This document shows positions 1 to 30,347 of a stretch of DNA of 64,000 bases, in pieces. The translations under genes and the position numbers were made by a program. A model generated the notes under the pieces. That model saw only the letters and a program-made list of their open reading frames with translations, was not told where the DNA came from and searched no databases. Position 1 is the stretch's first letter. Every line of letters starts with the position of its first letter. The DNA is from a virus (Duplodnaviria > Caudoviricetes), in the IMG/VR virus record IMGVR_UViG_3300038828_000048, positions 1 through 64,000 of that record. One strand, 5' to 3'.

Positions 1-98
1 AAACCTCTTGTCCAGAAATCTTGATGATGAGATGTGTGTTTTACAAATACATTGTAGCCGTGTATCGGCTCTTCTAATTCGGTTTTTTTAATTTCCAT
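1..98 (-). CDS. Partial hypothetical protein (MEIKKTELEEPIHGYNVFCK...) running off the left edge; probably another cassette gene
   Basis: ATG at 98 with an open frame to the window edge; lies next to attC-like site 1. Confidence 0.5.
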   Translation of the reverse strand, partial: MEIKKTELEEPIHGYNVFVKHTSHHQDFWTRG

Positions 99-111
99 AA
101 TAATTAACGTT

Positions 112-208
112 TGCTAACACAAGCTATACACCATAAAGCGGATAGGTTTGTGCTAAGATTAAAAATTCTGCTATGCTTTACGGTGCATAGCTTCAACCGT
201 TATGCGTA
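112..208. repeat. attC-like hairpin site 1
   Basis: TGCTAAC (112-118) ... GTTATGC (199-205) flank an inverted repeat 121-139/175-193 (17/19 complementary). Confidence 0.7.
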
Positions 209-211
209 ATA

Positions 212-481
212 CTACATTGCTGTAACAAAATGCACCTCGCCTTGTATCTGATGGGCAAAATCAATATAATCTTGCCCAAGTCGTTTAAAATCTTCTCTGT
301 AATGCTCACAGTTTTTGCATTCATAATGCCCATCACCCCAGCATTTTCCTTTTGGTTCTCCTTGCTTATAGCCGTTAGTTGGGCATTGTTCATCCAACAC
401 CGTACTACGCATAACAGCACCTACCAAAAAGGCGGGGCTTTCGGCTTCGTTAGAAGCATTTGTGGTTAAATTATTATTCAT
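212..481 (-). CDS. Hypothetical Cys-containing cassette protein whose N-terminus is encoded inside attC-like site 2
   Basis: 89 aa ORF with CxxC-type residues; FLVGAVMRS is the translation of the hairpin arm and core. Confidence 0.65.
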   Translation of the reverse strand: MNNNLTTNASNEAESPAFLVGAVMRSTVLDEQCPTNGYKQGEPKGKCWGDGHYECKNCEHYREDFKRLGQDYIDFAHQIQGEVHFVTAM

Positions 482-550
482 CTTTCTATGTTTATTTTTG
501 GTTAAAATCCCGCCCTTCTGGTAGCTGCTCCAACGTTATCAGATATCAAT
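406..550. repeat. attC-like hairpin site 2
   Basis: TACGCATAAC (406-415) ... GTTATCAG (535-542); arms 416-436/509-529 are 18/21 complementary. Confidence 0.75.
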
Positions 551-767
551 ATTCGTTTCCAAATTTTAAAGTCAATATTACTAATTCATGATTCTTTTTA
601 TTAAAATTTCTAAAATCTTCAGACTGTGAAAATCCAATTTCCAAAAGTCTTACTTTGTAATTTATAATATCTGACATTTTTTTAGACATTTTTTCTTTAT
701 CTTCAATCGGACCAAAATACTCTTCAATTTCTTTTCTTTTGCCTTGTAATTCAATACTATATTTCAT
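546..767 (-). CDS. Hypothetical protein (cassette 2)
   Basis: 73 aa ORF, start overlaps the stop of the upstream ORF. Confidence 0.7.
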   Translation of the reverse strand: MKYSIELQGKRKEIEEYFGPIEDKEKMSKKMSDIINYKVRLLEIGFSQSEDFRNFNKKNHELVILTLKFGNEY

Positions 768-1093
768 TATTTTATTTTTTTTACTACACGCACATAAATT
801 ATTTCATGATCTGGATTTTCATATTCAAACTTAAATTTTTCATTATAAGCATTTACCAAATCTTCAATACTTAAAAATTCCCTATCATCATTTTTAATAA
901 AATAGAAAGACTTTTGATTCGCAACACCATATCCGCATACGGTTTTATTTGTAATTGTTTCTTTTGACAATTTTAAATCTTTATCTTCAAAAACAGAATG
1001 CCATTTTGTTGCAAAATTTCTATGGCAAATCATTTTAAAATTTATATCATTTTGATTAATCATAACTATTTTTATATTTTCCCTTTCATCCAA
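767..1093 (-). CDS. Hypothetical protein (cassette 2)
   Basis: 108 aa ORF in a tightly packed trio. Confidence 0.7.
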   Translation of the reverse strand: MDERENIKIVMINQNDINFKMICHRNFATKWHSVFEDKDLKLSKETITNKTVCGYGVANQKSFYFIKNDDREFLSIEDLVNAYNEKFKFEYENPDHEIIYVRVVKKIK

Positions 1094-1278
1094 TCCGTGT
1101 TTTGTAATTCTTTTGGTATTTCAGGGTATTCAATTTCAGGATTTAAAGTTTTCCAATTCTCTAAATCTGCATGAGTAACCATTTTTTGATTTTCAATGCT
1201 TGTGTTTTCTGATCGTTCTTTTGACAATAAATAATTACCGAACGATACAACTTCATCTTCTAAATAAATTCTGTCCAT
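1072..1278 (-). CDS. Hypothetical small phage-type protein (VVSFGNYLLS...VTHADLENWK)
   Basis: ATG at 1278 after an A-rich leader is preferred over the TTG at 1338. Confidence 0.7.
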   Translation of the reverse strand: MDRIYLEDEVVSFGNYLLSKERSENTSIENQKMVTHADLENWKTLNPEIEYPEIPKELQNTDWMKGKI

Positions 1279-1308
1279 TTTAAAATATTTAAATTTAATT
1301 GTTAAATA

Positions 1309-1387
1309 ATTGACATCTGATAACACTGTACATAACAATAGCTTCCTTATCAGTCAGCCATCGTATGTACTTTGACGTTATCTGCAA
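1309..1387. repeat. attC-like hairpin site 3
   Basis: TCTGATAAC (1316-1324) ... GTTATCTGC (1377-1385); arms GTACATAACAATAGCT / AGCCATCGTATGTAC with one extra base. Confidence 0.7.
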
Positions 1388-1390
1388 CTG

Positions 1391-1810
1391 CTACGATACC
1401 GCTTCGATACAACGAATTTTAATAGTTGAACCATTTATGTATTTAATTTCTACATCTCTGACATTTTCTTTATCATAAACAGAAGAAATCTTCTCAATAC
1501 CGTAATTAGATATTTTACCGCATTGAATAAACATATCTTTCATTTTAGGAATTATAGCGTTAATAATTTCATCTCTTTTGTCGTAACTAATATCAAATCC
1601 TTCTCGGTTTTGGATTAGAATTTGCTCAACTTCTTTTACAATATTTAATCTATTGTATTCAAGTTTTACGGAACAATGCAATCCTGAATATTGTATAAAT
1701 TCAAGTTTGCATTTTTGTTCTATTGTTCCTTCAAGGAATAAACCATCTGATGAAATATAAGCCATTTTACTATCTAAATTGTCTTTGAAAAATTGCTCTA
1801 TATTATTCAT
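1391..1810 (-). CDS. Hypothetical protein (cassette 3); frame is open upstream to the ATG at 1918
   Basis: Internal ATG at 1810 after an A-rich leader. Confidence 0.65.
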   Translation of the reverse strand: MNNIEQFFKDNLDSKMAYISSDGLFLEGTIEQKCKLEFIQYSGLHCSVKLEYNRLNIVKEVEQILIQNREGFDISYDKRDEIINAIIPKMKDMFIQCGKISNYGIEKISSVYDKENVRDVEIKYINGSTIKIRCIEAVS

Positions 1811-1852
1811 TTTTATTTGTTTTAAAATTGACACCCTTGTAATTTGACCGCC

Positions 1853-1873
1853 ACTACCGCTAACAAGGGTTTG
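1853..1873. repeat. Truncated attC-like half-site (ACTACCGCTAACAAGGGTTTG)
   Basis: Same nnnTAAC-type left core as sites 1-3, but no partner arm downstream. Confidence 0.45.
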
Positions 1874-1941
1874 TACAAGTTTATGATTTGAAAAATCAAC
1901 TTTTGTTCGTTTAGACATAATAATTATATTATCTAATTTTT

Positions 1942-2631
1942 TTAATAAAATTTCATATCATTAAGATATGTTTTATATAATTCTACATCTTTACAATGTT
2001 TAAATAAATCTTCTAATATGTCAGGATTATCAAATATATTCCCTAATATTTCAATTTTATCTTGTATATAAAACAATACATCATCCATACTATCCCAAGG
2101 ATCATCTGGATCACCAGTTCCATTAAATGTTTCAACATCTAATGCTTGAAATGTATATTTATTATATACAACAATACCTAATACATCATTATCTTCACCT
2201 AAAAAGCTAGAAAACTTATTTCGTGGAGATTTAATTTTCCTAACAATATCTCCTCCCCATATAGTACGTCCATTTTTATCTTTAAGATTTGTGGTTCTAC
2301 ATGGATTTTCTATCTGATGATGGATTAAAGTTTTATCTATTAAAAAATGTTGATTTTGATGCTGATGGTGTATAATCGATACACCATACATCCATGACCA
2401 AGAATCTTTTGTTTTATAAATACCCTTATATTCGTGATTATCAGAAGGTACATCGTTATTTACAAATAAAACAGTGGTGGATTCTTCATCTATTCTATTA
2501 CTAAAATTAATCATTAATAATTGAATATCATCTTTATATTCCCAAATACATCCATCAGCAGTACCATTATCCGTTTGTTCTTTATAAAAAGCATCAAACA
2601 TTTCTCCTGCTATTACTAATTTATCACTCAT
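1942..2631 (-). CDS. YopX-domain protein
   Basis: TNLKDKNGRTIWGGDIV and IEILGNIFDNPDIL motifs. Confidence 0.8.
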   Translation of the reverse strand: MSDKLVIAGEMFDAFYKEQTDNGTADGCIWEYKDDIQLLMINFSNRIDEESTTVLFVNNDVPSDNHEYKGIYKTKDSWSWMYGVSIIHHQHQNQHFLIDKTLIHHQIENPCRTTNLKDKNGRTIWGGDIVRKIKSPRNKFSSFLGEDNDVLGIVVYNKYTFQALDVETFNGTGDPDDPWDSMDDVLFYIQDKIEILGNIFDNPDILEDLFKHCKDVELYKTYLNDMKFY

Positions 2632-2635
2632 AATA

Positions 2636-2869
2636 TTATAAATTTGTTTTGATTATACTTAATAATTCTTTACTTGTCTTAACTAGACATCTTTTCTTTA
2701 CAGATTCTACCATTTTTTTAGGAATATCGTAATGTGGATGTTTACCAGAATGATACCAACACCTCTTTATGTGCAAATCTTCAGCCATTTGATGAAGATT
2801 CTCTATAGAGTAAGGAATGCATATTAGATGTCGTGAATCATCGCATATATAAACCAAAGATGTTTTCAT
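2636..2869 (-). CDS. DUF4031-like small protein
   Basis: LHQMAEDLHIKRCWYH...HPHYDI pattern. Confidence 0.65.
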   Translation of the reverse strand: MKTSLVYICDDSRHLICIPYSIENLHQMAEDLHIKRCWYHSGKHPHYDIPKKMVESVKKRCLVKTSKELLSIIKTNL

Positions 2870-2876
2870 ACTCTAT

Positions 2877-3146
2877 TTATTCTAAAATCATCCAATCATC
2901 AGTTAATAAATCTGTTTGTGATGCTAACCAAGGAACAACCATATCATCTGCTGTTTTCATATCAATATGAGCATGATAACTAATTACTGCTCCTTCTGGG
3001 TAAATACCTAATAATGGAGGACGATTAACTGTAAAGGTAGATCCTGAAACAAGAAACAAAAACATTCCTTTTCCGTTCCAACCATTACGAGCTACTTTTT
3101 TACCTAATTTTAAAGCTTCTAAAGCTTGTCCGAAATTTAATGACAT
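2877..3146 (-). CDS. tad2: DUF2829 / Tad2-like anti-defence signalling-molecule sponge
   Basis: NFGQALEALKLGKKVARNGWNGKGMFLFL...VPWLASQTDLLTDDW family signature. Confidence 0.8.
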   Translation of the reverse strand: MSLNFGQALEALKLGKKVARNGWNGKGMFLFLVSGSTFTVNRPPLLGIYPEGAVISYHAHIDMKTADDMVVPWLASQTDLLTDDWMILE

Positions 3147-3161
3147 ATTATAAAACTTTAA

Positions 3162-3539
3162 TTAATTATTATTTAAAAAGTTATCCATTTCTTTACAAAA
3201 TAAATAACATAATTCATCCTGATCTTTATTAGATTTATTAATAACAAGAATATAACTAGTACCACGAATAGAAGAAGATATTGTAAATATTGACCCCATA
3301 AATTCTACAAACCAATTATATGATTTATACCAAGTAAGCCAAGTATAATCTGATTTACCAAATTTATTAAAAAAGATTTTCTTATTATCTCCAGCTATAT
3401 TACAATTAAACCATTCTTTATTATATTTATAATGATACTTTATTGCTAAGAAAGGAACATTGGCAATCGAATTAATAGATATATATTTATACGTTTCTTT
3501 TTCTTTTTTATCAAAAGTACATTTTTTAATACTACTCAT
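3162..3539 (-). CDS. Hypothetical protein
   Basis: ORF; ATG at 3539 preferred over the TTG at 3572. Confidence 0.65.
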   Translation of the reverse strand: MSSIKKCTFDKKEKETYKYISINSIANVPFLAIKYHYKYNKEWFNCNIAGDNKKIFFNKFGKSDYTWLTWYKSYNWFVEFMGSIFTISSSIRGTSYILVINKSNKDQDELCYLFCKEMDNFLNNN

Positions 3540-3544
3540 AAATA

Positions 3545-3823
3545 CTAATTTAGTTTTGGTATAGGAGACCAATATAAAGGATGAAGATCTAATAGATAAT
3601 CATATTCTGGATCTAATAAATCATTATAAATTCTACAATGATTTGATGCCATAGTGCGCCATCTAATAGGCATCTCATCTGCTACACAACCCAAATACAT
3701 AGATTGAATAGTATCAGTCTCTATATTACCATAATATAAGAAAACTAATTCTCCACATTCAGGTAAAGAATCGATATTTGTAATATCAATTTTATGTAAA
3801 TTTGGATACTTTAATGAAAATAT
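3545..3823 (-). CDS. Hypothetical protein missing from the ORF track (possible ATA start; ends ...LYWSPIPKLN)
   Basis: 93-codon open frame filling the gap between neighbouring genes. Confidence 0.5.
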   Translation of the reverse strand: MFSLKYPNLHKIDITNIDSLPECGELVFLYYGNIETDTIQSMYLGCVADEMPIRWRTMASNHCRIYNDLLDPEYDYLLDLHPLYWSPIPKLN

Positions 3824-4212
3824 ATATTTAGTTTAATATTACCTTCTTCATAAGTAACTTCTTTAGTGTACTTTTTAGGAAGTTTTACTGAAAATTCAAC
3901 ATAAGATTTCTTATTATCTTTAGTACTTTTAGTTAAATAATCTATTAGTTGAGATACACTTTTTTTTATATTATAGATTAGTGAAATATTACATTCATCA
4001 CAAAGAAACTCAATCTCTCCATCTGTAAAATTAGCGAAATCATTTATAATATTAATATTATCATCTTCATCAATTACCCACAAATGATTTTTAAGTTCAG
4101 ATAATTCAAAAATAAGTTCTTTATGATTATCATCAATAATTCTATATTGATTTTTTGTTTTTTTAATATGCTTATATACAGCTTTGAATGTCTTTTTTCT
4201 ACTTAATATCAT
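3811..4212 (-). CDS. Hypothetical protein
   Basis: 133 aa ORF. Confidence 0.7.
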   Translation of the reverse strand: MILSRKKTFKAVYKHIKKTKNQYRIIDDNHKELIFELSELKNHLWVIDEDDNINIINDFANFTDGEIEFLCDECNISLIYNIKKSVSQLIDYLTKSTKDNKKSYVEFSVKLPKKYTKEVTYEEGNIKLNIYFH

Positions 4213-4220
4213 ATTTATAC

Positions 4221-4787
4221 TTATTTTAAATTGAAAAATTCCTTGATTGTTTTTGGTGTATATTTTAATCGTCGAGTATCTTTTTTAATTTTTGTAAAAA
4301 GATATTTTTGTGGAGTAAATGTTTCTTCAAAGAAAGATGGGAGTTTAATTAAATTAATATAAATTTGATACTTATCAAATAACCAAGCTTTATTTTGTTG
4401 AAATAATCTAGTCATATTATTTCTATCAAAAATACCTTTAGTTTCAACATACGATATTAATTGAATTGTATCATCGCTTTGTTTTTCTTTTTTATATAAA
4501 AAAGGACAAGTAATTTTTAGTATTGTATCATCAATATCTTGTGCAATTATCGAAATATCTTTATCGGGATTCCATACTATCTTAAAATCAGTAGTATATA
4601 TTTTTTTACCTATAACTTTTTGAGTTAAGATTTTGGTGGATTTTTTTAAAATTTTCTGATACTCCTTGTTAAATCCTTTAGTAAGCACAAAAGGTTCTGG
4701 ATTATGCTCATAGGAAAGTATCACTCCAATAGATAATAATTCCTCTAAAAAATAAGAAAAATATAATTCTTCATCTGAATCAAACAT
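4221..4787 (-). CDS. PD-(D/E)XK endonuclease (DUF1064/resolvase-like)
   Basis: FDSDEE, YTTDF and VETKG motifs; ATG at 4787. Confidence 0.7.
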   Translation of the reverse strand: MFDSDEELYFSYFLEELLSIGVILSYEHNPEPFVLTKGFNKEYQKILKKSTKILTQKVIGKKIYTTDFKIVWNPDKDISIIAQDIDDTILKITCPFLYKKEKQSDDTIQLISYVETKGIFDRNNMTRLFQQNKAWLFDKYQIYINLIKLPSFFEETFTPQKYLFTKIKKDTRRLKYTPKTIKEFFNLK

Positions 4788-4809
4788 TAGCAATAAGTTA
4801 AAAATTAGT

Positions 4810-4839
4810 AAAAAGTGCAGTGGAAAACCCCACTGCACT
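4810..4839 (-). terminator. Intrinsic terminator
   Basis: AGTGCAGTGG/CCACTGCACT stem with U-tract on the minus strand. Confidence 0.7.
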
Positions 4840-4873
4840 ATAATCAAAAAATCACAATGAAATATAAAATATT

Positions 4874-5542
4874 TTATTCATCATCATCTACTAAAATAGC
4901 ATTTTCAGGATTTATATCATCATTATCATCATTTTGAGTAGATGATTCAAATTCCATTTCAGCCTGTACCCCATTAGTAGATGTACTATTAACAGGATCA
5001 ATATCGGTAGCAGCACTACTAGTTGGTTTTACAATACTACTGATATAATCTGTAATTTCGCCTTGGTTAAAAAATTCACTCAAATCATAAGATCCTAAAA
5101 ACATATCTGATAAATATACATCAACACTACTAACATCGTTACAATTAACTTGAAAAATAGCATTAGATGCGTTTTGTGCAACTGTAACAGCAAATACCCC
5201 AGTATCCGCAAACTTTCTAGAGTTTTGGAATCTAATTACTTTTCCTGATATAGGATTTTGAGTAAAACTTCCATCAAATAATTTATCAAATAAGTTTTTG
5301 ATAATTCTTTTATCTTTACTAACTACTAATCCAGTATGACGAAGCTTTCTATTATTACCAAATTTAGTAATACTTTCAGAAAAACTTGTTGATGGATTCC
5401 TTTCTTCATTTTCTAGAAGTTGTTTTAAGAACTCTAGAACATTTAAGTTCTCTCTTTCTCGAATTATATCAAGAAATTTTGTAGAAATTGTTTTAGATTT
5501 TCTTTCTACTACTGTTTTTGTTTCATCAACTACTACATCCAT
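4874..5542 (-). CDS. Hypothetical protein with acidic C-terminal tail
   Basis: 222 aa ORF. Confidence 0.75.
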   Translation of the reverse strand: MDVVVDETKTVVERKSKTISTKFLDIIRERENLNVLEFLKQLLENEERNPSTSFSESITKFGNNRKLRHTGLVVSKDKRIIKNLFDKLFDGSFTQNPISGKVIRFQNSRKFADTGVFAVTVAQNASNAIFQVNCNDVSSVDVYLSDMFLGSYDLSEFFNQGEITDYISSIVKPTSSAATDIDPVNSTSTNGVQAEMEFESSTQNDDNDDINPENAILVDDDE

Positions 5543-5548
5543 TTTTTT

Positions 5549-6304
5549 TTAATTTAAATTAACGTTTATAAAATTATTATTCAATAAATTATGCATATTT
5601 GCATAAATCTTATCATCATCAAAATCATTTTGAGCATTACTATTTATAAGTTCTTCATAACTATTCTTTATATACTTATTATAAGCTAGTAATATATTTT
5701 TTCTAATATAATGACAGTGAATCAATCTTTTGATAAGTACTTCATAATCAAAACTCATTTCGCAAATTCTAATCTCTATTGTTTTATATCTTGATGAAAA
5801 TCTTACCCAACATCTATAATCGATTTTAACATCTCTTGCATTATAAGAACCTTTATAATCCCAACTGTCCAACTCATTTAGAATAAAATCTTTGATTTTG
5901 GAAAAAAATATACTATCATTTATTATATTAAAATGATCAGTAAAATCAATATGAAAATGTATTCCACTATCGGTCAATGCACAATTCGATTTCATTAACT
6001 TACAAATATTATATAATGCTTTCATTCCAGGTAAACCTGGAGCAATTCTAAATCTTAATTCTGAAGTTGATGATCTATTTTCTTTTAATCCATCGATGGT
6101 ATCAAAAACATTACTATTTGTTAGTAAATTACATTCAACTTCAACACCACTATCTACAGGTAAATAGTGAAGCGCTTGTTGTTCAAAAATATTATCATCT
6201 AAAATATAAGGATATTTGAATATAAAATTCTCTGAGTTATAATAAGATTCAAAACTTGCTACATCATTAAATTCAGCGAATACTTTTGGATTATCATTCA
6301 TCAA
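5549..6304 (-). CDS. Putative amidoligase-like enzyme (COOH-NH2 ligase fold)
   Basis: GVEVEC, SELR, SGIHFHID and TIEIR motifs. Confidence 0.7.
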   Translation of the reverse strand: MMNDNPKVFAEFNDVASFESYYNSENFIFKYPYILDDNIFEQQALHYLPVDSGVEVECNLLTNSNVFDTIDGLKENRSSTSELRFRIAPGLPGMKALYNICKLMKSNCALTDSGIHFHIDFTDHFNIINDSIFFSKIKDFILNELDSWDYKGSYNARDVKIDYRCWVRFSSRYKTIEIRICEMSFDYEVLIKRLIHCHYIRKNILLAYNKYIKNSYEELINSNAQNDFDDDKIYANMHNLLNNNFINVNLN

Positions 6305-7029: not shown

Positions 7030-9937
7030 TTCCAACGAATTTTAGTGAATGAATTTTATTTAATGGTTTTAATTTTATATATTTACTAAGAATTAGTTCT
7101 CGTAAATCTAATGGTTGATTAGTATTAGTACATTCTCTAATTATACCCCAATTTACTTTAATAAATCTATTTACTAATTCTAATATATATTTATATTTTT
7201 CTATACTAGATAATACTAAATCGAATTTAATACTCGCATCAAGTTCTTCAAAGAAACTAAAATAATCTTCAAATTTGTATCTATTAATAAAAGGATTTTC
7301 TTTAATTTTAATTGGGTCTAATTCAATATGATCATTATGGTTAGTATGACTATCAGTATTACAATCAAAATAAAATAAAAATTCTCTTAATAAATCATAA
7401 TATTCTACATAAATAGTTGATTTGAAAATATTTGCAAAATCCCATATTTTTTGAATAATACATGCATCAAAAAATGTAATATTTGAACGACTTATATCAA
7501 ACATATCATAATTAGAAAAATCATTAGCTTTATATATATTATAATTATGGGTTTTAAATAGTTTATAAAAAACTGCTTTTTGTAAATAATCATAAAACAG
7601 ATCCAAAATATAAATATTTTCTTTTAAAAATAAATCATCTACTTTAATTATTTTAGATCTGAACAAGTTATAAAAATTATTTTTTTCAATTTTAGTATAA
7701 TTACTAATATCACATAATAAAAAGCTATTTGTATTTTTAACTAATTGATCATCTTCTACTGGTTGTAATTGATAAATTGTATCACGATATTTACCAAACG
7801 TTCTTATAAAATTATACTTATGATCTGTTATACAATTATTTTTTTTATTTTCGTCTCTAATTATGATATAATCATGCTTATTAATTTCATCATGATTTAA
7901 AACTATACTTGAAGAAGAAAAAATAGATGAATAATCATAATAATTAGATAAAGCTAATGAAAATTCAATATCGGTTTTTTCTTTTTTTGCACTAATTGTT
8001 TTTTTTCTTTTCTCTCGTATAGCTAGAATAGATTGTTTCTTTTTTTCAATAAAACTATCAATTTCTTCTTGAATATGTTCAATAGGAACATCTGGAACAA
8101 CACCTAATTTAACTATTTCATAATATATATCTTTATATACACGAATAGCATCTTTTATATAAGTTAAATTTAAATATCTTTTTATTGTTTTATAAACAAA
8201 ATAACCAGGATATTTATGTAATCTAGAAATATAATTATTACTACCTTCCAAAATGCTACGTTGATAATCTATTATAATATTTGTTATAATGTTATCTGTA
8301 ATAAACTTCCAAGTTTTATTATCCGTAATATTCAAGTTTAATTTAATATTCGATATTTTATTTGAATCGAACACGGTATCATCTACATTATAATCATCAT
8401 ATATTTTATAATATCTTTTAGAATCATGATAACTTGTTTTTCCATATGCTAATCTTACATCAATATTTCTAAAAAGCTTATTAAAAACTCTTGAAAATTT
8501 TGATTGAGATAAATAGCTGAATTTATTATAATTCAAAAGGTAATAAATTCTTTCACTGGAACTAATTGACTTCAAATATGATATGAATGTATTGATTAGA
8601 TCATCATCATTACTTCCTTCAATCATTTCTGGACTACAAACCTTAAAATCTTCGTTAACTTCTTTAATAATACGATTTCTTATATTAAGATATTCTAATG
8701 TATTAAATGGTTCATTGTAATTAATAAGTTTTCGTGTAAGTAAAATTTTAAAATAAGAATCAGAATGTTTTACTCTAAGTATTATATTTTTATTATCATT
8801 ATTATTATTACTTTGATTATTAAAATTTAAAATAACTCCGAGTGATGAATCATAATTATCTATACAATGATGGTATTCAGCAATATTATCAATATATTCA
8901 TAATGTCTAATAATATTATTACTTATAAGATCAAATACTTGTATATATTTTTTAATAATATTATTTATAGATAACTCGGTATATTCAATATTTTCTCTAT
9001 TCAAAGTTACATTAAGATCTCCAATATTGAATTTTAAATGTACCCCTGATAAAAAGTTCATATCATATTGATAATAATCACCTATATTATTTTTCTTTAT
9101 ATATTCATTAAACTTTGGTTCAATTAAAGAATGATCTAACTTATAAGATACACAATCTAAACTAATTCTTAGCGAATCTTCATTATTTGAAGTATGATAA
9201 AAAAGATCGTGTTCATAAATTAATCTATTATTAAATTTATCTACTTTAGTTGCAAGATCTTGAAGTTTAGAAGCATATAGCATATTACTATATGACAAAG
9301 TATTTTGAAGAACGAGTGGGTTTATTTGAAAATTGAAATAGATATTTTTAAATAAATATAATTGCTGCGATACTTTTACTACAAAAGAAAATAAATCATC
9401 ATATTTTACAGAAAAATATATTTTTGTTCCATTTCTCTCCGATGTTGGAACTTCATTCAACAAACTTATCTCTGGTAAAGTAGGAGTTTTATTTAAAATA
9501 TAAGTATATTTAGTACCAGAATACTTAGTTTCTATATAAAAGAAATCAACATAACCCAGTGGTGATTTTGATCCAATACCCCAACCGCCTATAAAATCTT
9601 GACTTAATCTTTTAGTACTATCGAAATATGACATATAATGTTTCTCAATAAATTGAGGTGACATACCAATACCATCGTCTTTCACAGAGAATGTTATTTC
9701 TGAATCAATATCACAATATAAAGATATCAATATTGGATTATTTACATTATCCAATCTATTTGCATCTAAAGCATTAGATGTTAATTCTCGAATAATCGAT
9801 CCTATAAGATCAGAATATAAGTTTTTACTCACAGCAGATATCGCAAACATCATGTTGGATGCACTAATATTAGCTTGTGTAGCTTTTCCTACACCAATAC
9901 TATCAATCTCAATATTTTCTAATATTTCTACCTTCAT
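7019..9937 (-). CDS. rIIA: rIIA-like protein with N-terminal GHKL/HATPase domain
   Basis: LYSD..IRELTSNALDA, VKDDGIGMS, STKR and GGWGIGSKSP motifs. Confidence 0.8.
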   Translation of the reverse strand: MKVEILENIEIDSIGVGKATQANISASNMMFAISAVSKNLYSDLIGSIIRELTSNALDANRLDNVNNPILISLYCDIDSEITFSVKDDGIGMSPQFIEKHYMSYFDSTKRLSQDFIGGWGIGSKSPLGYVDFFYIETKYSGTKYTYILNKTPTLPEISLLNEVPTSERNGTKIYFSVKYDDLFSFVVKVSQQLYLFKNIYFNFQINPLVLQNTLSYSNMLYASKLQDLATKVDKFNNRLIYEHDLFYHTSNNEDSLRISLDCVSYKLDHSLIEPKFNEYIKKNNIGDYYQYDMNFLSGVHLKFNIGDLNVTLNRENIEYTELSINNIIKKYIQVFDLISNNIIRHYEYIDNIAEYHHCIDNYDSSLGVILNFNNQSNNNNDNKNIILRVKHSDSYFKILLTRKLINYNEPFNTLEYLNIRNRIIKEVNEDFKVCSPEMIEGSNDDDLINTFISYLKSISSSERIYYLLNYNKFSYLSQSKFSRVFNKLFRNIDVRLAYGKTSYHDSKRYYKIYDDYNVDDTVFDSNKISNIKLNLNITDNKTWKFITDNIITNIIIDYQRSILEGSNNYISRLHKYPGYFVYKTIKRYLNLTYIKDAIRVYKDIYYEIVKLGVVPDVPIEHIQEEIDSFIEKKKQSILAIREKRKKTISAKKEKTDIEFSLALSNYYDYSSIFSSSSIVLNHDEINKHDYIIIRDENKKNNCITDHKYNFIRTFGKYRDTIYQLQPVEDDQLVKNTNSFLLCDISNYTKIEKNNFYNLFRSKIIKVDDLFLKENIYILDLFYDYLQKAVFYKLFKTHNYNIYKANDFSNYDMFDISRSNITFFDACIIQKIWDFANIFKSTIYVEYYDLLREFLFYFDCNTDSHTNHNDHIELDPIKIKENPFINRYKFEDYFSFFEELDASIKFDLVLSSIEKYKYILELVNRFIKVNWGIIRECTNTNQPLDLRELILSKYIKLKPLNKIHSLKFVGNET

Positions 9938-29849: not shown

Positions 29850-30347
29850 TTAATTTTCAATATGGTCTTCGTTTAAAACAAGATCTCCTTCTAATACATC
29901 ATCCGAAATATCATCTGTAACATTATTCTGATCTACATCTTCTACTGAATCTGACAATACTATGTCCGATGATAATTTTTGATTTTTAAAACTTATCGAA
30001 GATATATATCTTTTATACACTTGATCTAATAGATTAAATTGTTCTGTGGAAAACTGTTCTTCTAATGCCCATATTGATATTCCATCTTCTCCAGTTGCAA
30101 TTTTTAACCCAAATGTACTTAATAATTTTTGAATTATTAAGAATCTTTCATTATCAGTTAATTTAACCAAACTATTAAACGATAATGCAGTAAGTCCTGT
30201 ATTAGAATTTACAAATCTTTTAATATCAAAAGGATAAACGGGAACTTGAATCTTTAAATCAAATAGAAAACTATTAATTCTCTGCCAATCTTCTTTACTA
30301 GCAGTAATTATTCTTTTTTCTACTACTTTTTCTGTTTGCGGTGTCAT
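29850..30347 (-). CDS. Hypothetical protein with acidic tail
   Basis: 165 aa ORF. Confidence 0.7.
   Translation of the reverse strand: MTPQTEKVVEKRIITASKEDWQRINSFLFDLKIQVPVYPFDIKRFVNSNTGLTALSFNSLVKLTDNERFLIIQKLLSTFGLKIATGEDGISIWALEEQFSTEQFNLLDQVYKRYISSISFKNQKLSSDIVLSDSVEDVDQNNVTDDISDDVLEGDLVLNEDHIEN

Follow-up and report, generated by a model that had tools for sequence, protein, structure and literature searches.

To our knowledge, integrons are regarded as the one dedicated machine with which bacteria capture gene cassettes, and they are defined by the integrase IntI with its extra helix. In the CTX phage, a folded single strand, attP(+), serves as the site for Xer-family enzymes, and the pdif modules of Acinetobacter are bounded by inverted Xer sites. 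CTX phage, the integrative mobile elements exploiting Xer (IMEX) and the pdif modules depend on host XerC/D and dif-like sequences, and are not known to have a dedicated recombinase gene beside an array, cassette-specific arms or long arrays of small cassettes. The promoter early stem-loop (PeSL) cassettes of T4-type phages comprise small accessory open reading frames (ORFs) in hyperplastic regions, with stem-loops between them; shuffling of these cassettes has been proposed, presumably by homologous recombination between near-identical repeats. We are aware of no recombinase, G|TT core (the bar marks the junction) or cassette-specific arms described for PeSLs. Clusters of attC sites lacking integrases (CALINs) have been reported in virulent phages, including Polaribacter phage P12002L, in which HattCI assigned sites of the type described below to attC (Qi et al., 2023; PMC9892861). 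Here we describe a cassette array in the IMG/VR virus record IMGVR_UViG_3300038828_000048 (linear, 122,259 bp, 72% complete, 27% GC), the first 64 kb of which are hereafter called the window. Positions 1–1390 of the window are probably the recombinase-distal end of an integron-like array, which belongs to a Bacteroidota/phage system with a different enzyme and a different site design.

A preliminary description, made from the letters of this DNA, had reported three imperfect hairpins with TAAC and GTTA cores, and extended complementarity between the two ends of one ORF block. We recovered both features (Table 1). The arms of cassette c7 match at 13 of 14 positions (199–212 against the reverse complement of 402–415) and those of cassette c8 at 15 of 16 (535–550 against the reverse complement of 1309–1324; inverted repeat I24, 94%). 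In both pairs the sole mismatch is located at position 11, counted from the G of GTT, with an A in the left arm and a G in the reverse complement of the right arm. This rule is also followed by five more cassettes of the same contig, and the right arm of the cassette that is cut by the contig start, ATTAACGTTTGCTAAC, pairs with GTTAGCAAACATTAAG at contig 121508 (14/16, one mismatch at position 11). When a strict arm rule (GTTR start, 14 nt, A/G at position 11, at most one other mismatch, partner within 4 kb) was applied to the whole 122-kb genome, six pairs were found in the array, one elsewhere and none of the opposite polarity. A generic energy scan for YAAC...GTTR hairpins was unspecific (54 matches, versus 36–45 in shuffled sequence) and was discarded.

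Joining the two ends of one cassette, as in a circle, yields one continuous hairpin in which the bottom strand is favored. The circle fold is 6–9 kcal/mol more stable than the array fold in six of seven cassettes, those with a clean arm pair, and the gain is only 2.5 kcal/mol in cassette cJ1-J2. For the bottom strand of c7 we calculated -31.1 kcal/mol in the circle versus -22.6 kcal/mol in the array, and for that of c8 -17.5 versus -9.6 kcal/mol. The circular forms of c7 and c8 thus reconstitute one paired site, with a gain of 7–9 kcal/mol, as is characteristic of integron cassettes. Within the array, all three hairpins of the window fold better as minus than as plus strand. Hairpin 1 reaches -19.2 kcal/mol (z -4.15; plus strand z -1.58) and hairpin 2 -21.4 kcal/mol (z -3.42; plus strand z -1.57), and the z values of hairpin 3 are -1.31 for the minus and +0.20 for the plus strand.

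The sites are not confined to this contig. A hairpin-only search pattern (TTGCAAAAGC, 60–90 nt, GCCTTCGCAA), taken from the stems and not including the arms, matches both viral and bacterial contigs, at least 120 of each; the locus tallies given here are among the matches listed (120 viral and 120 bacterial loci). The search of the genome, other phages and Bacteroidota that had been suggested earlier thus yielded sites in all three, those of the genome including an array at the other contig end. The bacterial matches are overwhelmingly from Bacteroidota, including isolates of Flavobacterium, Chryseobacterium, Epilithonimonas and Maribacter. Same-strand arm pairs that obey the rule are present in 103 of the viral and 68 of the bacterial loci, often as chains of 5–17 cassettes spaced by hairpins of approximately 110–129 nt. 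In an unbiased tally of 409 distinct arm pairs from the viral loci, 311 have a mismatch at position 11, which is A/G in 287 and G/A in 2 cases; a single pair is perfect, and pairing extends to position 15. The arm consensus of the viral set is GTTA-K-NN-GCAAT-NN-T. As each block is flanked by inverted repeats of 14–16 nt, the arms could be read as targets of site-specific inversion (an inverton or shufflon) that flips gene blocks. The arms, however, have a polarity of 287 to 2, and the orientation of the ORFs, which frequent flipping would randomize, is 280 to 7; we regard inversion as scarcely credible.

The hairpins of this family are alike in fold, not in sequence. In an alignment of 44 sites from other phage contigs (G000 left out), compensatory changes are found in 16 of 21 predicted stem pairs, a G-U beside the AAC/GTT core is kept in 43 of the 44 sites on the bottom strand only, and a 5-nt bulge is present on one side only. 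The covariance model built from these sites, R1, recovers all three hairpins, so that the check by covariance model envisaged in the preliminary description came out in favor of the sites, here with a model from independent contigs. The strong matches of R1 in window positions 1–6000 are exactly these three sites, all on the minus strand, and the next best match scores 10.9 bits. At default filters R1 also matches the sites J6, J1 and J3 at the other contig end. The short hairpin 3 (1318–1383) is near-identical to one in an unrelated HK97-type phage fragment (L014), which has four sites of this kind around its cassettes, one of them with a methyltransferase. A search pattern for this short type gave 22 viral loci, of which L014 alone is real, the others being chance matches inside genes. 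One L014 hairpin (8175–8327) has a sub-threshold Rfam match to WsnRNA46 (Wolbachia sRNA 46; 33 bits, gathering score 65), which lies below the gathering score and was rejected as probably a chance match or a palindromic repeat. In half of the comparisons across the retrieved loci, cassettes that share their arms differ in their neighbors.

The absence of an integrase that had been noted for the window extends to the whole contig, in which no PF00589 gene is present, and a tblastn search of the whole contig for a recombinase remnant gave nothing below E 6. Neither an adjacent Xer-like recombinase nor an attI-like first junction is found in the 122-kb contig, and it therefore carries a CALIN-like orphan array. 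The earlier proposal of assembly by a tyrosine recombinase encoded elsewhere agrees with the sister arrays, which carry such a gene beside the first G|TT junction. A tyrosine recombinase of 277–282 aa is present in 5 of 50 sister phage records (45 are without one). In four phage records its start codon lies approximately 45–50 nt from the first junction, which has no hairpin and shows ACATAT 4–5 nt upstream of the G. Homologues (31–50% identity) occur in 15 of the 120 bacterial loci listed, among them loci of the isolates Epilithonimonas mollis and Maribacter sp. 4G9. In every such locus with a detected array, the homologue lies on the same side of it, whichever way the gene points, and a similar RTAT motif precedes the first G|TT. 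In a search of genome contigs with the recombinase protein, only distant Xer-like genes were retrieved (26–38% identity).

The recombinase contains the catalytic R, K, H-x-x-R, H and Y residues and aligns end to end with XerA structures. It remains below every curated cut-off: XerA_Arch (199 versus 220 bits), XerD (170 versus 330 bits) and IntI (TIGR02249; 162 versus 265 bits). Compared with VchIntIA (2a3v) it lacks approximately 43 residues between two aligned stretches (21 residues versus 64); judged from the alignment, this gap should be where the IntI-specific insertion lies. An IntI-clade integrase with the additional domain (I2 helix) was thus not found, and the IntI-like gene anticipated in the preliminary description is replaced by a Xer-like tyrosine recombinase beside the sister arrays. 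The IntI insertion, the I2 helix, is said to have enabled single-strand recombination (PMC7790495).

The enzyme gives its best alignments with XerA and XerD, both of them acting on duplex DNA, and it is without the IntI insertion. Both points are in keeping with an alternative in which the same cassettes and Xer-like enzyme are used with double-stranded dif-like sites, similar to pdif modules and without a folded single strand. The foot of the hairpin stem would then be the left half-site, the 4–6 nt spacer the center and the 11-nt TT arm, which presumably resembles XerD half-sites, the right half-site. The conserved GCAAT at arm positions 8–12 and the lack of a hairpin at the attI-like sites would also suit such a site. 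A duplex site, however, would select neither for compensatory changes in 16 of 21 pairs nor for G-U and G-T positions on one strand, and the arms of one cassette are complementary only when they are brought together in the folded circle. We therefore consider duplex dif-like sites unlikely, though the least unlikely of the alternatives, and prefer a folded-strand, integron-like array.

How the array compares with integrons follows from the layout of its units. As the first junction beside the recombinase is without a hairpin, each hairpin belongs to the unit on its left. With a hairpin-less first and a hairpin-bearing last junction, the unit consists of a TT-arm, the ORFs, an arm ending in YAAC, the hairpin and a G. 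The polarity of the DNA is therefore as in integrons, and the orientation of the genes is reversed. In the window, G|TT is read on the plus strand and every ORF on the minus strand, and in 280 of 287 viral cassettes the ORF is on the bottom strand; the integron arrangement of an ORF followed by its own attC on the strand that reads G|TT is not seen. Shared with integrons and CALINs are the arrays of small promoter-poor cassettes, the G|TT/AAC core, the site reconstituted by the circle, the bottom-strand fold, and a tyrosine recombinase with a hairpin-less attI-like site at one end, with recombinase-less arrays being common. In contrast to integrons, the enzyme is Xer-like (approximately 280 aa) without the IntI-specific insertion. 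Instead of a 7-bp R box there are arms of approximately 15 bp with a fixed G-T at position 11, and the bulge is one-sided. The hairpin lies upstream of bottom-strand ORFs, and the host range consists of Bacteroidota and their phages. Of the attC R boxes (RYYYAAC/GTTRRRY) only YAAC and GTTR are kept. The R' boxes of the window sites are GTTATGC, GTTATCA and GTTATCT, with a T at position 5 in all three; over 287 arms, T, G and C make up 46%, 39% and 13% at this position.

The same comparison extends to phage P12002L. One of its sites, P12002L_attC1, was not recombined by IntI1, and only attC2 worked (PMC9892861). We find that P12002L_attC1 is of the hairpin site type described here (P12002L approximately 30005–30060), and that the same site type lies between methyltransferase and Mom genes in the P12002L genome. 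The P12002L CALIN also shares the TAAC...spacer|GTTA anatomy, the methyltransferase/Mom cargo and the occurrence in a Bacteroidota phage without integrase. It differs in how it was described: it is filed under classical integrons, with no description of arms, wobble or a Xer-like enzyme (PMC9892861). Both arrays of P12002L (L280; 29170–29245 and 37199–37270) begin with the same approximately 75 nt, which end in ...ATCCGTT|GTTA. This 75-nt left boundary is attC2, the site recombined by IntI1 (PMC9892861), and attC2 may be an attI-like boundary rather than an attC.

The G|TT core, the YAAC/GTTR pair, the bottom-strand fold preference, the cassette logic and the HattCI calls of attC in P12002L are all what would be expected of a canonical integron remnant, that is, a CALIN with ordinary attC sites served by a host IntI. 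This explanation conflicts with the T at position 5, where GTTRRRY needs R, with the ORFs on the opposite strand, with the sister-array enzyme (without approximately 43 residues, and at 162 versus 265 bits for IntI) and with the failure of IntI1 on P12002L_attC1, and it appears very improbable. The CALIN-like reading of the preliminary description can thus be kept for an orphan integron-like array; membership of the integrons has to be given up on account of the enzyme, the R boxes, the gene orientation and the published IntI1 result. The array is a real recombinase-less array, integron-like in its working without being a canonical integron, and apparently an undescribed, widespread variant. 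The literature searched yielded no account of a Xer-like cassette system from Bacteroidota.

The evidence for mobility comes from assembled contigs, not from reads, and in part from an independent sludge metagenome (X3). In one X3 contig the match to the window begins precisely at 199 and is preceded by unrelated DNA, up to 198; another starts matching at 532. A third follows the site-2 hairpin to 528 and continues with AAAAC and GTTAGCAGTC, the arm of another cassette. The source run contains a minor form (14x) in which another hairpin end is joined at 1375, next to a main form of 69x and a backbone of 78–79x. The differences in cassette context with breakpoints at G|TT that had been predicted are therefore present, with breaks at, or at most 3 nt from, the junctions 199, 535 and 1377. 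Assembled contigs, which drop rare forms, contain no strand-changing joint. In X3 and X4, forms of c8 diverge after 1065. The X3 form has a 23-nt linker in place of ORF 1072–1338 and rejoins at 1311, the start of the right arm, and the X4 form has a different sequence after 1065; the three-ORF cassette therefore looks composite.

Could the hairpins be regulatory or structural only (terminators, mRNA stabilizers or PeSL-like elements), with the cassettes shuffled by homologous or illegitimate recombination? The fold in mRNA sense, a terminator-like sub-hairpin at site 1, ATGs in the hairpin loops and the divergence of the copies of the first cassette inside the hairpin would agree with this. 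It leaves unexplained the cassette-specific arms with a polar wobble, the constant position of the recombinase and the breaks within 3 nt of G|TT; the T tract is missing at sites 2 and 3. Homologous recombination would also find little homology, because the hairpins share their fold and not their sequence. We judge a purely regulatory role to be improbable, and an integron-like array remains our preferred reading.

Several observations nevertheless weigh against an integron-like array. The strand that folds preferentially is that of mRNA sense, and a role at the RNA level would explain the polarity of the wobble equally well. At the last site the X3 breakpoint is at 1387, 10 nt inside the backbone arm, and not at 1377. 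No circle junction (535 to 200, 1377 to 536) is present in the assembled contigs, which drop rare forms. Divergence between the two copies of the first cassette sets in within the hairpin, 9 nt after TAAC, and the copy at the contig end has a short hybrid hairpin; this divergence looks like recombination or deletion within the site, not at G|TT. No PF00589 gene is present in this 72% complete contig, and no biochemical test of this pair of enzyme and site was found in the literature searched. The hybrid hairpin itself (contig 121743–121764; L002 approximately 1520–1541) consists of ACAAGCTAT and GCATGTACTTGAC and is very short. It lies where the two copies begin to differ. Its 5' part is the same as that of site 1 of the window, its 3' part is similar to that of a different type of site, and it could be a product of in-site recombination or deletion, or a join in the assembly graph.

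On the basis of these features, the array might work as follows. On the plus strand, a unit comprises TT and the left arm (counted from the terminal G of the unit before it), one to three minus-strand ORFs, a right arm ending in YAAC, an imperfect hairpin of approximately 20–130 nt and a spacer of 4–6 nt ending in G. Excision as a circle would bring the two arms of the unit together. On the bottom strand these would pair over approximately 15 bp with a G-T wobble at position 11, and the paired arms would stack on the hairpin across a one-sided bulge of 4–5 nt. The resulting pseudo-duplex would offer two recombinase-binding elements around an unpaired center. A small Xer-like tyrosine recombinase, supplied in trans by the Bacteroidota host or a co-resident element, would cut the bottom strand at AA|C, which corresponds to G|TT on the top strand, and exchange a single strand with either a second such site or an attI-like one (RTAT motif, 4–8 nt, then G|TT). 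Replication would resolve the junction, as in integrons and CTX phage. The hairpin, being upstream of the cassette genes, may carry expression signals as well.

On balance, we favor the view that Bacteroidota possess a second capture system of the integron type, with a Xer-like enzyme, wobble arms and upstream hairpins, and that virulent phages such as this one routinely carry orphan arrays of it in which an enzyme acting in trans swaps accessory, probably anti-defense, genes. The logic of integron capture is seen here with another recombinase lineage and site design, at hundreds of loci across Bacteroidota and many unrelated types of phage (crAss-like, HK97-like and P12002L). If this is true, cassette capture by folded DNA has evolved or diversified beyond IntI, small accessory genes of Bacteroidota phages have a mechanism for rapid turnover, and the fixed wobble is a simple mark for strand selection. 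Tools that find attC sites and reports of CALINs in phages would partly mix two systems.

The array of the window consists of the parts listed in Table 1. The flank beyond the last junction, GTTATCTGCAACTGCT, has no reverse-complement partner within three mismatches anywhere in the contig, and the array therefore ends at junction 1377. Of the extent 112–1875 given in the preliminary description, the part up to this junction stands, and 1391–1875 falls outside. The 175-aa ORF located there is phage backbone or an immobilized last unit; it has no Pfam or PHROG family and no relative among viral contigs.

Table 1. Parts of the cassette array and its distal flank (window coordinates).
Feature	Position	Strand	Description
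Cassette end cut by contig start	1–118	-	3' part of 67-aa ORF (3–98) and right arm ATTAACGTTTGCTAAC (103–118)
Hairpin 1 (attC-like site)	112–205	-	Ends at junction G199|TT; R1 49.2 bits, E 5e-9
Cassette c7	199–535		Left arm 199–213, one ORF, right arm 401–415, own hairpin to G535; GC approximately 40%
c7 ORF	212–481	-	89 aa from hairpin-loop ATG, or 66 aa from in-arm ATG at 412; Cys-rich
Hairpin 2 (attC-like site)	409–541	-	Ends at junction G535|TT; R1 74.9 bits, E 3e-14
Cassette c8	535–1377		Left arm 535–550, three ORFs, right arm 1309–1324, hairpin to G1377; GC approximately 25%
c8 ORFs	546–767, 767–1093, 1072–1338	-	
Hairpin 3 (site of short type)	1318–1383	-	Ends at last junction G1377|TT; R1 31.7 bits, E 1.7e-5
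Distal array boundary	1377–1392	+	Arm-like backbone flank GTTATCTGCAACTGCT
175-aa ORF outside array	1391–1918	-	Without right arm

The array had been thought to continue past the left edge of the window, and it does so at the other end of the contig. Window positions 1–127 are identical to contig 121625–121751, within a further array at contig approximately 118,790–122,259, and the array therefore has at least nine cassettes. The last 3.5 kb of the contig contain seven more junctions of the same build, J0–J6 (contig 118880–122137), and five cassettes among them have arms that follow the rule. At the degenerate left border of this array (approximately 118,880), CCG replaces GTT. The source unitig spanning window positions 1–836 extends 116 nt further to the left, which would place its left end at approximately contig 121509, junction J4.

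The four ORFs of the window cassettes have no usable match in Pfam, PHROGs or the protein atlas. For the c7 ORF there is no Pfam or PHROG family and the matches in the protein atlas are sub-threshold, and ORF 546–767 has a sub-threshold Pfam match to zf-CCCH_Mcm10 (19.4 bits, cut-off 26.8). A Mom gene is present in the array at the contig end, and DNA methyltransferases are found in sister arrays. The cargo is accessory, with anti-restriction (Mom, methyltransferases) as the theme in the rest of the array and the sister arrays. Two neighboring cassettes of the contig-end array (L003 12532–12942 and 13034–13414; contig 120532–121414) each carry a paralogue of PHROG 10066, homologues of which occur in cassettes of at least five other phage arrays. 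A cassette of another locus (L086:1–960), which adjoins an attI-like site directly, has the same 19-nt left arm as contig 120158–121053 and is 92% identical to it over the last 100 nt (right arm and hairpin), with unrelated cargo. The recombination module thus seems to be reused around different genes.

The sites may also act in expression, because the favored strand is the mRNA strand, a terminator-like element is present and reading frames are open back to ATGs in the loops. Site 1 contains the terminator-like sub-hairpin (191–170) followed by a T run; sites 2 and 3 are without a T tract. The loops of the hairpins (window 440–481; loci L026–L144) are rich in A and contain ATGs as well as repeated motifs of the form ACAAA(T)G. 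Of 280 viral cassettes examined, 129 have a main ORF with its frame open back to a loop ATG 50–79 nt upstream of GTT, and in 137 the first ATG lies downstream of the arm, mostly 20–59 nt after GTT, resulting in a bimodal distribution. Cassette c7 is among those with a frame open to a loop ATG, with candidate starts at 481 and 412.

The phage itself had been described as crAss-like. Among matches of its terminase large subunit (TerL), Cellulophaga phage phi14:2 ranks first (E 4e-82; 30% identity across 95% of the protein) and crAss-like phages of Flavobacterium and Bacteroides come next, and PHROGs families matched by the contig include terminase large subunit, portal and major head protein. 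On the basis of these matches the label is reasonable. A megablast search of window positions 1–6000 against GenBank phages returned no match. The runs in which 98% of the stretch is present are metagenomes of activated sludge; parts of it occur in samples from sludge, wastewater and biofilm. The first approximately 540 nt had been noted to be richer in GC than the backbone, and the GC content is indeed 0.355–0.405 across positions 1–600 and 0.23–0.30 beyond.

Outside the array, contigs of two other metagenomes, X3 (depth 110) and X8, skip 664 nt of the window (2869–3532). The skipped segment contains a Tad2-like Thoeris anti-defense gene (2877–3146; Pfam E 1e-25) together with the greater part of the ORF that follows. 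The joint connects one gene start with another, with 5 nt of shared letters, and, as no hairpin site flanks it, represents a separate kind of gene-module insertion or deletion.

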